IMG/VR virus record: IMGVR_UViG_3300028581_000010
DNA: 64,000 nt
Direction: 5' to 3' (one strand)
From: a virus
Lineage: Duplodnaviria; Caudoviricetes
The translations under genes and the position numbers were made by a program. Below are positions 3,549-17,639 of this stretch, piece after piece (the stretch's first letter is position 1; each line of letters begins with the position of its first letter). Below the pieces are notes generated by a model, which worked only from the letters and a program-made list of their open reading frames with translations, was not told the DNA's origin and ran no database searches.

Positions 3549-3853
3549 GTGACTTGCTGACCTGCGTATAGTATTTGTCCTGCAGCTCGTGAGCTGGGAC
3601 GCGGCTATACCGTCTGTTTGAATCTCGCACGACGTAATACTTGACAGTGTTTTCCATAAACCTATTGTAACAGGTCCACAGAAGAGTTCAAATATTATGT
3701 CCTACGAGCTTATAGGTTTGTGAATACTTTGAGCTCCGCCCGCTTTTTCTTCTTGCGTTTGGGCTTAGGATGTAAAATAATGGTGTAGGCTTTAAATGAA
3801 TCACTTACGTAAGTCAGAATTGATTCCGCCACCATGTCCTTAGTTACTAATAT

Positions 3854-13391: not shown

Positions 13392-13413
13392 AAGTTATTT
13401 GATACTGGAAAAA

Positions 13414-13488
13414 TACCCCAATCGAGGCTCGAACTCGAAGTCTCCAGGTTGAAAACCTAGCGTGTTAGACCAGTTACACTATTGGGGC
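13414..13488 (-). tRNA. tRNA-Glu(TTC)
   Basis: Cloverleaf with loop TTTTCAA; CCA not encoded. Confidence 0.93.
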
Positions 13489-13496
13489 AAAAGCTT

Positions 13497-13613
13497 CCTA
13501 CCGATTACTACGAAGGCGCCGATCAAGTTTGGACCTCTCTCGACATTGCCTTCCTGTTATTGTATTGGGCGAGCTACACATACTCAGTGTAACGGCCACA
13601 GGCGGATGGTAGG
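13497..13613 (-). ncRNA. Candidate structured RNA A (three-way junction)
   Basis: Stems CCTACC/GGTAGG, CCTGT/ACAGG, TACAC/GTGTA, AAGGC/GCCTT, GTCGA/TCGGC. Confidence 0.55.
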
Positions 13614-13630
13614 TTTACAACCGTGAACCA

Positions 13631-13762
13631 AAGTGTAGTATGAGCGCGGCAGGATTTGAACCTGCATGACTAGCGACTGTTAGTGAATCCCAATATATAG
13701 CTAATACTATATACCCGTCTTTGTCTTATTATTTAGCGTCTTTACATTCCGCCACGCCGCTC
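13631..13762 (-). ncRNA. tRNA-Leu-like RNA (132 nt) with an expanded anticodon domain
   Basis: Bulged acceptor GAGCGGCG/CGCGCTC, Leu-type D-arm GCG-GAATGTAAAGA-CGC, T-arm GCAGG-TTCAAAT-CCTGC; anticodon loop replaced by about 42 nt. Confidence 0.7.
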
Positions 13763-13786
13763 AAACTAACCACAGCAAAAATGTTT

Positions 13787-13893
13787 TGGCGGGGCTTCCG
13801 GTAGGGGCTTGGTAATCTCTAGCAACTTAAACCAATGATCCCCGCTTTACCGATGCTACGACCCGAAGCACTCGTGCTGGCCATGCCACGCCA
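13787..13893 (-). ncRNA. Candidate structured RNA B
   Basis: Stems TGGCGTGGC/GCCCCGCCA, CGGTA/TACCG, GGGG/CCCC, TTGGT/ACCAA. Confidence 0.55.
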
Positions 13894-13911
13894 CCAAATA
13901 ACTAAAAAGTT

Positions 13912-14023
13912 GTTGACCAAGATTAAAAGGTCCTGTTTACCCACGACAGGACAGGCTTCGGCTCCTTTCGGATAATGGCGCTATTTCCGCCTTACGCCTT
14001 GTCAGCAGGAGCCTAGGCTCCTG
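13912..14023 (-). ncRNA. Candidate structured RNA C, preceded by an 18-bp perfect palindrome
   Basis: GGCG-GAAATAG-CGCC, TCC-GAAA-GGA, GTCCTGT/ACAGGAC, closing TGAC/GTCA; palindrome CAGGAGCCTAGGCTCCTG at 14006-14023. Confidence 0.55.
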
Positions 14024-14047
14024 AGATTCTTACAAACATAAACTGAT

Positions 14048-14467
14048 GAAACACCTCGATTTGACATACCTATACACCCGGAAGCGCCATAAGAGATTAC
14101 TCCGACCACTGGTGGCCGGTTGTATAACTCACACCTGCGTACAGGTGTACTTTGCAACTGGCGCAGTGTTACCTACGCCAGCTCTTTAAGCTTAGCTATG
14201 GACTTTAAATGAGCCTTCCTTACTTATACCTTGCAACCATAACGGATATGAGCCTTACTACCTTGCGAACTTGAGCCTTCAGCCTTGAGACATAGCACTC
14301 TGATGAGTGATATACCATAGGTTTGATACACGCTGAGAAAGCATGTTAGGTTTACAATTCCATGTAAGTTTCATATTGTCGATTATGAGTTCGCCAGATG
14401 AAAGCCACAAGGGCCTCCTCTAGTCTTTTCTCTAACTGATTACGGATATGTCAAATCGAACTGTTTC
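14048..14467 (-). ncRNA. Candidate large RNA D (420 nt) with an AAG-repeat loop
   Basis: 13-bp perfect terminal stem TCGATTTGACATA/TATGTCAAATCGA extended by GAAACA/TGTTTC; several internal hairpins; 90-nt loop containing 10 AAG triplets. Confidence 0.7.
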
Positions 14468-14474
14468 AAATTGT

Positions 14475-14606
14475 GCAGGGCTATGTCCCTGCTGGGAGGT
14501 CTGTCGGCCTCATCCAAGGGGTTCTCTCCCCCTGTCAACTCTGGTATTAGCAGGTCTTGAGTTTTCCCTGTTTTAAACTGAGAACGACTACATGCCTGAT
14601 CAGTTT
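14475..14606 (-). ncRNA. Candidate structured RNA E, downstream of tRNA-Leu(TAG)
   Basis: AAACTGA/TCAGTTT, CAGG/CCTG, GGGG/CCCC, GAGG/CCTC, GCAGGG/CCCTGC; possible AACTC/GAGTT pseudoknot. Confidence 0.45.
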
Positions 14607-14613
14607 GAAAGTC

Positions 14614-14701
14614 TGCGCGAGGCGGGACTCGAACCCGCATGCTACTGTTATTTCGCGTCCGCCTCTAAAACGGAATTGTCTACCAATTTCAACACCCGCG
14701 C
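14614..14701 (-). tRNA. tRNA-Leu(TAG)
   Basis: Class II cloverleaf, loop TTTAGAG. Confidence 0.92.
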
Positions 14702-15391
14702 GTTTAAACTTATACCATAACTCCTACACCATTTTCTAACTGCGTTATCAGAAACTCCGAAGGTTTTCCCTATCTGCACAAAAGATGCCGTACGTATGAG
14801 CCGTTGCAATTCGTCTTTCTCCGGGCGCACAACTTTGCGAAAGCTTGGTTTTGGTTTAGTTCTCCAGTGCGGATCTCCTTTTATTTTCTCCTTTTTAGTC
14901 CTTGTCGGCTTGGGAGGCATTTTCTGTTCGCGTCTGTCAACCAGCCTACGCCTAGTCTCCATAGCATGACAGTTAGGGCAAAGAAGCTGTAAGTTCTCTA
15001 GTCGGTTATCGAAGTGGTCAGAATTTATATGATCCAACTCCAAAATAGCGGGAGCACCTTGCCAGTCAGTTAAGCCGCATAGTTCGCATTCTTGCTTTTT
15101 GAACCCTTCCTTAATAAGCCTCTTTTTAATGTAGTTGCTATTGCATGGTGAGTTGGCCACCAGATATTTCTCTATAGGCTGCTTAGGTGGGAAAGTTTTA
15201 CCCTTATTCCAAGCTTTGCCAGTAAAGTGAGTGGTCGGCAAGTCATAAGCTTTAGCAACTTTTGCAATATAGCTTTGGGCGCCTGTCCGAGAAGATACTT
15301 CTAATTTTCGACATACCTCTGCCCACGAGCGGCACTGTTCGACAATAGGCCCCAATAATTGCTTTGTGTATTTGGTTCTTAGCATACGCAT
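14648..15391 (-). CDS. Free-standing HNH endonuclease; C-terminus reads into tRNA-Leu
   Basis: CELCG...ELDHINSDHFDNRLENLQLLCPNCH and a C-terminal HTH (FGVSDNAVRKW); start 15391 or 15385 behind TTGACT-N18-TAAGAT. Confidence 0.88.
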   Translation of the reverse strand: MRMLRTKYTKQLLGPIVEQCRSWAEVCRKLEVSSRTGAQSYIAKVAKAYDLPTTHFTGKAWNKGKTFPPKQPIEKYLVANSPCNSNYIKKRLIKEGFKKQECELCGLTDWQGAPAILELDHINSDHFDNRLENLQLLCPNCHAMETRRRLVDRREQKMPPKPTRTKKEKIKGDPHWRTKPKPSFRKVVRPEKDELQRLIRTASFVQIGKTFGVSDNAVRKWCRSYGISLNARVLKLVDNSVLEADAK

Positions 15392-15437
15392 ATATCTTAA
15401 GGCAAGTGCGTATGCCAAGTCAACTAGATATGTAAAG

Positions 15438-15613
15438 TTTTCCTACGAGTGGGATATGATCCCACACTCCGCGCATGTACCGGTGAACGCGGGTGCTATT
15501 TATCGGACTCGACCACTTCGGAAGCGATCCGTCGTGCGCCCAATGCCTCGCCCTGTGTGTCTAGAAACACAGCAGTTGCCCATATTAATTTTGGGTTACA
15601 CTATCGTAGAAAA
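15438..15613 (-). ncRNA. Candidate structured RNA F
   Basis: Closing stem TTTTCTACGA/TCGTAGGAAAA; internal CCCA/TGGG, TGTGT/ACACA, GTGGG/CCCAC. Confidence 0.5.
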
Positions 15614-15621
15614 GTTAAAGA

Positions 15622-15655
15622 GATGGGGACGCCGTGGTTTTGCGGCGCCCCCATC
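15622..15655 (-). terminator. Probable intrinsic terminator downstream of tmRNA
   Basis: GATGGGG-GCGCCG/CGGCGT-CCCCATC hairpin followed by TCTTTAACTTTT. Confidence 0.55.
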
Positions 15656-15851
15656 CTGATGTTACCAGGCCAACTTTTTGTGGACAGGATGCCAAGCCTG
15701 CTTTACGAGATTCATCGAACAAGGTGATTTAGGCCTGTTCGATGCACTCACCACCCCCGCAGAAAAACGGCCCACACCCTCAAGCGCCACTCAACCTCCA
15801 GGCCTAGGAAGGAGGTATGGTTGTGACTCTGTTTTGTAATGTGGGACCAAA

Positions 15852-16271
15852 TGGTGGAGGTAGCGGGAGTCGAACCCGCGTGTTCAATACTTCTCTAACA
15901 CCTCTACGTGCGTAGTTTGATATTATTTTCGACTGTGGTCTGCTATCAAACAAACGGTGCCACAGCTTAGGCAGACCCGTCTGCCAGGGTGCGGATTACC
16001 GCCATCTTTTACCACGATTGACGCCGAGCGCTTTTCTTCACTCAGCCAGGTTACGTGACATCCTGAGTTCGATGACTGTTACAGTCCGCTTACGCGGCGA
16101 GCAGTTCGCGATCAACGCTCCCGAAGGAGGCGATCATCGCGTCAGCTTCTGCAACCGTCATTGCTTGATCCATAGGATTAGCATTTAGTTTTTGTTAGCT
16201 TTCAAGGTGCCCCGCTAACGAACCCACACGCAGTGCTTCAATACATATTGAGTCGAAGCCAGTATACCCCC
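15852..16271 (-). ncRNA. ssrA: tmRNA (420 nt)
   Basis: 5' GGGGGTA, 3' T-arm GCGGG-TTCGACT-CCCGC then TACCTCCACCA (G3.U70 pair); tag frame 16182-16090 = ANPMDQAMTVAEADAMIASFGSVDRELLAA*. Confidence 0.95.
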
Positions 16272-16322
16272 GAAAATGTGTGCGTGGTGCACTGTTTTAA
16301 TTGTACACCACGCACGAAAACG

Positions 16323-16868
16323 CTACAACTCCAAAAGTGGCGTGGTCGCATTGACCGTCTCGAGGATCGAGTCGATCAGGTGTGGCTCGCGCCGGAAGTT
16401 TGTGACTTTTTGATCCCGGACTTGCGGATCAAAGTAGCGACGAACCTTCACGGTTGCAGACCCTCCAGTCGATGTGGGCACGGTCTTGTCTTTCAGGTTC
16501 CTGTCGTTCAGGAGACCCCAAGCGAGCTGCTCATGGTTGGCAAGATCCCGCCGGCGCAACACCCAAGCGGCGATCGTCTTCTCGACTGTTCGTGATGGCT
16601 CGATTTCAATCGTAACCTTTGTCTCCAGATTTGTCTTTTGGATACGCAAGGACAGCTCTTCGATCTTTGAGAGCTTGTCATGGATGGCTTGGAGCCAGCC
16701 TTCCACGGTTTTGCGCTGAGTCACCTCATCTGTGTAAACAGGTGCCTCGTTGTCCAGATCAGCCGCATGCGCGTTGATCTTTGCTTTGAGCTCCTCGATG
16801 TCTGCAAGGAGCAACTTCCGCTGCTTCATTGCCTGAATTAACGTCAGGCTCGCTTTGTTCTCGGTCAT
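16323..16868 (-). CDS. DIP1984/DUF6847-like coiled-coil protein
   Basis: Pattern L.QAMKQRK.L...I..L...I / RIQKTN..T.V / RRRDL / VRRYFD / ID..LETVNATT.L matches the family as I recall it. Confidence 0.65.
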   Translation of the reverse strand: MTENKASLTLIQAMKQRKLLLADIEELKAKINAHAADLDNEAPVYTDEVTQRKTVEGWLQAIHDKLSKIEELSLRIQKTNLETKVTIEIEPSRTVEKTIAAWVLRRRDLANHEQLAWGLLNDRNLKDKTVPTSTGGSATVKVRRYFDPQVRDQKVTNFRREPHLIDSILETVNATTPLLEL

Positions 16869-17171: not shown

Positions 17172-17639
17172 TCACTGTGGAAGCTGTTTTTGTACCTCTT
17201 TGGAAAGGAGCTGGCCTGGTATATTTCCACCGGACATTTCCTTGGCGAGCTTCATCACATCGCCCATCTGTTTGCGTGAAGTAGCCTCGAGCTTCGATAT
17301 TGCCTGAGAGACGATTGTCTCGATCTCTCCCTCGGTTGGGACCGGAGGCATGTAGGCAGCGAGCATAACCTTCTCCATTCCCTCCTTGGCGGCCCGTGCC
17401 GTTTCTCCGACTTTTACATAGGAGTCGATGGAGTCCTGTCTCTTCTTGCACTCCTTGGCGACCACCTGTAAAAACTCGGTCTGGTCGAGCTCGTGGCGCA
17501 GTTCGATAGCCTTGTTTACCATCGCGCTCTTGAGCATGCGCAATACGTCGCGCTTCATACGGTCGCCAGTCATCATGGCAACCTTGATATCCTCGTCGAT
17601 TTTTTGTGAGGGTAGCATATTGTTAGCAGGGTTGAACAA
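17172..17639 (-). CDS. GatB/YqeY domain protein
   Basis: IKVAM...RDVLRMLKSA...KECKKRQDSI..Y...YMP...EIETIV...KQMGDVMK. Confidence 0.85.
   Translation of the reverse strand: MFNPANNMLPSQKIDEDIKVAMMTGDRMKRDVLRMLKSAMVNKAIELRHELDQTEFLQVVAKECKKRQDSIDSYVKVGETARAAKEGMEKVMLAAYMPPVPTEGEIETIVSQAISKLEATSRKQMGDVMKLAKEMSGGNIPGQLLSKEVQKQLPQ

Follow-up and report, generated by a model that had tools for sequence, protein, structure and literature searches.

The DNA considered here, a window of 64,000 nucleotides (nt) from a virus of the Caudoviricetes (Duplodnaviria; IMG/VR virus record IMGVR_UViG_3300028581_000010), contains a cluster of RNA genes between positions 13,489 and 15,851. It belongs to a large tailed phage of about 215 kb (the longest contig on record with its protein is 215 kb), and genes for a terminase, a baseplate protein and a head protease are present in the window itself. 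All of the RNA genes in the interval lie on the minus strand, as do the other features located below. They include genes for tRNA-Glu(UUC), at 13413–13489, for tRNA-Leu(UAG), at 14614–14701, and for transfer-messenger RNA (tmRNA), at 15852–16271. A gene for a free-standing HNH homing endonuclease occupies 14648–15391, and beyond the tmRNA, at 16323–16868, comes a gene for a 181-aa protein, P0001, that is DUF6847/DIP1984-like. Most of what follows concerns a structured RNA, unit D (14048–14467), which is probably a distant relative of an RNA that we find beside DUF6847 genes in dozens of other phages.

An earlier note on this DNA, made from the letters alone, had described an interval of low coding potential, interleaved with tRNA and tmRNA genes, in which seven structured units, A to G, belonged to no recognizable family. 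In these respects it was right. Two stretches, 13490–14613 and 15419–15851, are poor in open reading frames (ORFs) and are flanked by the tRNA-Glu, tRNA-Leu and tmRNA genes, each of which is called both by ARAGORN and by Rfam (61.8 bits, 44.5 bits and, for RF00023, 93 bits over its full length). The longest ORF that lies wholly within either stretch has 51 aa; larger ones on the list enter from outside (one of 66 aa that starts in tRNA-Leu, and two plus-strand ones of 92 and 97 aa). Codon-usage scores are zero or less, except for one of 0.28 at about 14540, in unit E, and those of flanking genes are positive. None of the units matches Rfam 15 at gathering scores or at E ≤ 10, and GOLLD, ROOL, RNase P RNA, 6S RNA, group I and II introns and HEARO are among the models that find nothing in A to G. 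In other respects the note went too far. The units were said to be discrete and paired at their ends; in A, B, D and F the minimum-energy fold does join the two ends, but C, E and G are strings of hairpins. Nor do we find support for seven discrete products of a single polycistronic operon, for the interval has a strong terminator-like hairpin, a promoter-like site and the HNH protein gene inside it. The note overlooked the strand, a tRNA-like element at 13640–13763, the terminator hairpin of G, and the identity, HNH, of the ORF between units E and F.

Structure is also unevenly distributed. When fold energies on the minus strand are compared with those of shuffled sequences, the z-scores are −5.07 for D, −3.55 for F, −3.06 for A, −2.64 for G, −1.72 for E, −1.38 for C and −0.46 for B. 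Two coding controls of 420 nt score −1.28 and +0.26, and in comparison with these we do not regard B, C and E as above chance. D, F and A are set apart, G is a borderline case, and the folds of B, C and E are at the level of shuffled sequence. The 'array of structured RNAs' that had been proposed shrinks accordingly, and what is left of it most clearly is D: structured, uncatalogued, and set among tRNA genes.

Unit D is 420 nt long and is closed by a helix of 22 bp, formed by inverted-repeat arms of 22 nt at 14047–14068 and 14447–14468. Within it, at 14204–14295, runs what we call a rail, a series of short heptad-like units—seven AAGG and two AAGU—at spacings of 7, 7, 8, 8, 24, 7, 4 and 4 nt. 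The rail provided the first lead. Searched with nhmmer, D gave a weak match at a locus that had been fetched for another reason, in the intergenic gap that directly follows a P0001 homologue. Matches to the rail were then found at the same position beside DUF6847 genes in 19 loci, the best with E = 1.6e-4. Using a profile of P0001, we gathered 80 loci from IMG/VR, and a few from other assemblies.

The RNA that these loci have in common is about 300 nt long and contains a closing helix, P1, two long-range helices, P2 and P3, and from five to nine AAGG units with a period, as in D, of 7–8 nt. From 5′ to 3′, its parts are the first strand of P1, the motif AGAGAUAAAAAC, a short strand of P2, a hairpin region, a variable insert, the AAGG units and another hairpin. 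These are followed by GAAUGA-CCUGG..AAGUU, which includes the 5′ strand of P3, by a U-rich loop and by the partner strand of P2. The 3′ end consists of AACUU..CCAGG, the 3′ strand of P3, then CUUCC, then the partner strand of P1. P2 and P3 cross, and so the core of the RNA is a pseudoknot. In 152 of 221 units, AAGG is followed by C or U, and the last heptad in the family alignment (A2) is often CAAGGAUGU. The 3′ end, GAAUGAC ... CAGAAC ... GGCUU, resembles that of Escherichia coli RNase P RNA, but we reject such an identity: no RNase P model matches at E ≤ 10, and the topology of the helices is different.

All three helices covary. With registers anchored on the motifs, canonical pairs make up 94% of P1, compared with 47% when partners are shuffled, 86% of P2 (70% shuffled) and 92% of the proximal part of P3 (73% shuffled), and in none of the three does any of 2000 partner shuffles reach the observed value. 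R1, a covariance model, describes the 3′ domain, and the window sequence had no part in its construction. In its alignment, which covers P3 and a hairpin, 78% of cells are paired (61% in shuffles) and the covariation score is 0.426 (0.150 in shuffles, none of 500 being as high); sliding the partner strand by a single column drops pairing to about 50%. U-G pairs occur in the helices, which fits a family that acts as RNA, on the strand of the gene. RNAalifold finds no pairs in a MAFFT alignment of these sequences, because such an alignment takes no account of structure; the anchored registers and the model-made alignment were used in its place.

The association with the gene is close. R1 matches 70 of 75 non-redundant loci, always on the strand of the DUF6847 gene, with the RNA downstream of it in 65 and upstream in 5. 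It also matches 11 of 19 contigs of metagenome-assembled genomes (MAGs), which are labelled with many different phyla, and in 966 kb of control phage loci it finds nothing below E = 0.25. Weak matches in two loci (L001 and L003) lie within coding region and were discounted. The loci that are matched all have a protein with 37% or more identity to P0001, and none at 31% or less is matched, as would be expected if each subfamily of the protein had its own type of RNA. Loci of the latter kind (L267–L274), from Synergistaceae and other MAGs, have no RNA that R1 recognizes after their DUF6847 homologues. Rfam 15 has no entry for the family and no match in one of its members, L128, and our search of the literature turned up no paper on it. 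This, then, is an uncatalogued, covarying, pseudoknotted RNA, tied in dozens of phages to one small protein gene of unknown function, which it accompanies in nearly all of the loci we examined.

How does unit D relate to it? In the 64-kb window, both strands included, R1 has just two matches, with 19.5 bits (E = 0.0036) and 9.4 bits, and both are to the rail of D. A hidden Markov model (HMM) of the family matches the rail likewise, with E = 0.0058 and 0.051. A DUF6847 gene is present on the same strand, 1.85 kb upstream of D; gaps between gene and RNA of up to 1.7 kb occur in the family (L108, for example). Just inside the 5′ arm of its closing helix D has AGAGAAAAGAC (AGAGA..AAA), and just inside the 3′ arm GCUUCC; the joint chance of these two end motifs is about 1e-5. 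By eye, CCAUAG and UUAUGG can be paired as a candidate P3, followed by CGCUUCC, with three extra hairpins in the loop. What D and the family clearly have in common is the AAGG rail; what sets D apart is its distance from the gene, its length of 420 nt, its 22-bp closing helix, and a core that the models do not recognize. R1 aligns the rail and skips the core, and for that reason we file D as a divergent relative and not as a full member.

Several things weigh against this kinship, and against the larger picture built on it. The canonical 3′ core—GAAUGA, P3 and GGCUUCC—is not found in D, where the covariance model aligns the rail alone, and the HMM of the family's 5′ part has no match there. 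The threading of D onto P1, P2 and P3 was done by eye. The patterns on which the joint chance of the two end motifs was calculated were chosen after they had been seen. D is not adjacent to its presumed partner gene: the tmRNA, units G and F, the HNH gene, tRNA-Leu and unit E all come between, as does the terminator-like hairpin at 15621–15656. Binding of the protein to the rail is a prediction. Seven metagenome contigs carry the same phage DNA, six of them 100% identical to it and the seventh with one mismatch, and since these copies are identical, or nearly so, they yield no covariation for D or for any other unit. Neither blastn of the region nor tblastn of P0001 finds a match in 50,697 phage records; no close relative was found in IMG/VR with the DUF6847 protein alone, the neighbouring YqeY-like protein or the 429-aa neighbour as queries; and the 80 loci of another neighbour, phrog_624, show, across the RNA genes, no synteny and no likeness in nucleotide sequence. 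No public sequencing run of RNA is listed for the region.

With all of this in the balance, we favour, at a probability of roughly 0.6, a reading in which the interval is an RNA-gene island of the phage, made up of the tmRNA, two tRNAs, the HNH gene, two tRNA-derived remnants, at least one terminator, and unit D, and in which D is this phage's divergent counterpart of the RNA found beside DUF6847 genes, its rail retained on a rebuilt scaffold. Beside the window's own DUF6847 gene there is no canonical family RNA; a hairpin and then the tmRNA follow directly. If the reading is correct, the RNA can be separated from the gene and rebuilt on another scaffold with the rail kept, and it is the rail that would appear to be the functional core.

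The spacers might, on the other hand, be nothing but decay: eroded tRNA genes, scars of homing endonucleases and terminators, with the AAGG repeats of D incidental. The interval does contain two elements that resemble degraded tRNAs, an HNH gene of the tRNA-cluster family in its midst, and a terminator that closes G; the folds of B, C and E are no more stable than those of shuffles, and among the 255 loci that were fetched no homologue was detected for any unit except D. For B, C, E and G decay may still be the right description. For D it is harder to uphold, because the rail significantly matches the DUF6847-associated RNA and nothing else in the window does, because the partner gene is present and on the same strand, and because D, along with F and A, folds far better than shuffles do. 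As an account of the whole we judge it unlikely. A further possibility is that the rail RNA is genuine but serves as a sponge for a host RNA-binding protein, CsrA/RsmA or Hfq, and has no dealings with DUF6847, the linkage to which would reflect co-regulation only. Known sponge RNAs do bear many short repeats, and the heptad with which family rails often end, CAAGGAUGU, is similar to the selection consensus of CsrA, RUACARGGAUGU. Against this, GGA is not conserved in most heptads, AAGG being followed as it is by C or U; the type of RNA tracks the protein subfamily, as the limits of 37% and 31% identity attest; and the pair spans phyla, among them groups in which CsrA is not known. We consider a sponge of this sort very unlikely.

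Even less probable, in our estimation, is that D acts as DNA, either as an iteron-type array of protein-binding sites at an origin or partition site, or as a miniature inverted-repeat element, with DUF6847 in either case a DNA-binding protein. The appearance of D invites the idea: inverted repeats of 22 nt surround 378 bp, the direct heptad repeats are iteron-like, and by fold z-score neither strand is above the other. But the helices of the family covary, and their U-G pairs would become A-C mismatches on the other strand; the element is always on the strand of the gene; and in half of the loci there are true tRNAs between the gene and the 3′ core. D itself folds 21 kcal/mol more stably on the minus strand than on the plus, and it has no further copies, as a miniature inverted-repeat element should, in the 64-kb window.

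The tRNAs deserve a closer look, for they recur throughout the family. In 34 of 70 loci, ARAGORN finds at least one tRNA between the gene and the 3′ core of the RNA, and the anticodons are many and different. These tRNAs score 45–62 bits with Rfam. At one locus (L103) two tRNAs lie within the RNA and another 15 follow it in a row, so that it stands at the head of a cluster of 17. From these loci, and this cluster in particular, processing of the RNA together with tRNAs becomes plausible. Where the RNA has no tRNA, there can be a hairpin in the same position with a 7-nt, anticodon-like loop of the form CU-NNN-AA: CUGCCAA, CUGAUAA, CUCCUAA or CUCUUAA (L128, at about 3590–3610, L113, L150 and L088). 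In L088 there is a T arm at this position as well. The insert of the family may derive from a module of tRNA-like form.

P0001, the presumed protein partner of D, fits the DUF6847/DIP1984 family weakly by sequence and clearly by fold. It matches the NCBIfam model DIP1984_fam with E = 1.4e-6, which is below the curated cutoff, and its Pfam DUF6847 match is weak. Its AlphaFold model has a predicted local distance difference test score (pLDDT) of 95, and the top Foldseek match of this model is 3KDQ (E = 1.3e-4), a protein of unknown function. A likeness to TasH, also from Foldseek, is not significant (probability 0.33). Modelled as a homodimer, P0001 scores 0.82, and the best of three controls 0.00; of 30 proteins whose solved structure is a pair of one chain, 20 reached this mark, as did 1 of 23 whose structure is a single chain. 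Contacts are the same between runs to 98% or more, with a partner pLDDT of at least 92. The family has had a crystal structure, that of the relative 3KDQ, since 2009, and for that reason the dimer may owe its score to recall instead of to prediction. We found no paper on the function of DUF6847 proteins.

Were these strands to be drawn together, DUF6847 dimers would bind successive heptads of the rail to build a protein–RNA particle, RNase P and RNase Z would release the RNA from precursors that contain tRNAs, and the long terminal helix would shield it. Binding, processing and a role in tRNA biology are all things we infer here. A rail lined with DUF6847 dimers, on a pseudoknotted RNA that hosts tRNAs, could represent an undescribed class of particle, found in phages of many bacterial phyla and acting on the supply of tRNA; we offer this as a tentative idea, with the odds against it. 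If it is true, such particles might, for instance, carry the tRNAs of the phage to where they are used, protect them, or be decoys for host defences that cleave tRNA, and the window would present the module as one part of a larger island in which A, E and F are new phage RNAs too. Clusters of tRNA genes in phages are tied to escape from host tRNA-cutting defences, and the module appears to be part of the same toolkit. Whatever becomes of the particle, the DUF6847 family gains a candidate RNA partner that can be tested.

Parts of this arrangement have precedents. In the trp leader bound by TRAP, the hut leader bound by HutP, and sponges of the CsrB type, an oligomeric protein uses its subunits to recognize short RNA motifs that recur at regular spacing. 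The motif in the window is AAGG, its period is 7–8 nt, and in the family the rail is built into a large pseudoknotted scaffold, often beside a tRNA; the DUF6847 fold is unrelated to those of the other proteins, and reading of the rail by the protein is something we predict. Ro60 and its Y RNA or YrlA partners, which occur in bacteria and phages, are another case of a protein gene paired with a structured RNA, in this instance one that bears a tRNA-like module. Here, in contrast, there is no TROVE-domain protein, the Y RNA models of Rfam do not match, and the tRNAs are full ones. GOLLD and ROOL, like the family, are large RNAs of phages and prophages near tRNA genes, but neither the window nor the family loci match them, or anything comparable, in Rfam. 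The tRNA region of phage T4 also houses small stable RNAs, RNAC and RNAD, for which we know of no protein partner or repeat rail. RNAC and RNAD are of unknown function (PMC9697503), and T4 SegB is a free-standing homing endonuclease gene in a phage tRNA cluster (PMC2330249). Both regions thus combine tRNA genes with a homing endonuclease and with small RNAs of unknown function, but they have no relation in sequence; SegB, moreover, is a GIY-YIG enzyme, whereas that of the window is HNH.

The window's HNH gene belongs to a family of phage tRNA clusters. Its product, of 245–247 aa, has the HNH motif (Pfam HNH, 4.1e-7) and matches phrog_10822 with E = 5.6e-45. It separates the two ORF-poor stretches, and its reading frame extends 54 nt into tRNA-Leu(UAG). 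In 78 of 80 loci of its homologues (L176–L255, each fetched with up to 3 kb on either side), there are tRNA or tmRNA genes, and often it is a tRNA-Leu gene that lies directly beside the homologue. This suggests that tRNA-Leu genes are the homing target of the family. A sigma-70-like promoter match, TTGACT-18 nt-TAAGAT, is present at 15394–15423; it is a match to consensus only, and the scan that found it returned 8 sites with 4.6 expected.

The units other than D are a mixed collection. None of A, B, C, E, F and G, nor the tRNA-like element between A and B, has an nhmmer match in the 255 fetched loci or a repeat within the window, and A, B, C and E are no more than candidate RNA genes. Unit A (13497–13613) is a 117-nt fold of three helices that is strand-specific, with a z-score of −0.34 on the plus strand against the −3.06 given above. 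The ends of B (13787–13893) pair, although its fold is at the level of chance. Unit C (13912–14023) has two hairpins, the second of which, with arms at 13946–13952 and 13930–13936, has 7 bp and a 9-nt loop, above the limit of the terminator scanner; CUUUUAAUCUU comes directly after it, and it may for this reason be a terminator. Also in C, at 13985–14000, just beyond the closing helix of D, there are two more heptads, AAGGCGU and AAGGCGG. Unit E (14475–14606), between tRNA-Leu and D, comprises a hairpin and a rod.

Two of these elements look, by their sequences, like remnants of tRNAs. The one at 13640–13763, which was absent from the earlier list, resembles an eroded tRNA-Leu: its D arm is of the Leu type, its T arm (repeat family D1) is intact, its acceptor stem is bulged, and where a tRNA has the anticodon arm it has about 65 nt of inserted sequence. 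The other is unit F (15438–15613), a 176-nt junction of several helices with a 10-bp closing stem and tRNA-like ends. It begins with the same sequence as tRNA-Glu (repeat D4), and in its 3′ part a terminal hairpin is stacked on an acceptor-like stem. Neither element reaches the tRNA threshold of RF00005 or the ARAGORN default; ARAGORN calls them, the second at 15441–15524, only when the threshold is lowered to 85% and an intron is allowed. Unit G (15622–15830) is rich in hairpins and ends, at 15621–15656, in a hairpin that resembles an intrinsic terminator, with 14 pairs, 10 of them G-C, followed by the T-rich sequence CTTTAACTTT. With so GC-rich a hairpin at its end, G is at least in part the trailer of the tmRNA together with a terminator.

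The tmRNA itself encodes an unusually long tag, of 30 residues, that ends in LLAA. Between it and the stop codon of the DUF6847 gene, in 16272–16322, there is a hairpin of 13 bp, with the loop AAUUAAAACA and then ACAUUUUC, that may be a terminator or a site of processing; the loop is loosely like the family motif AUAAAAAC. On the far side, just upstream of the DUF6847 gene, comes a YqeY-like gene (17172–17639; GatB/Yqey domain, Pfam 1.7e-31), by its predicted domain a further gene related to translation or tRNA at the edge of the island.

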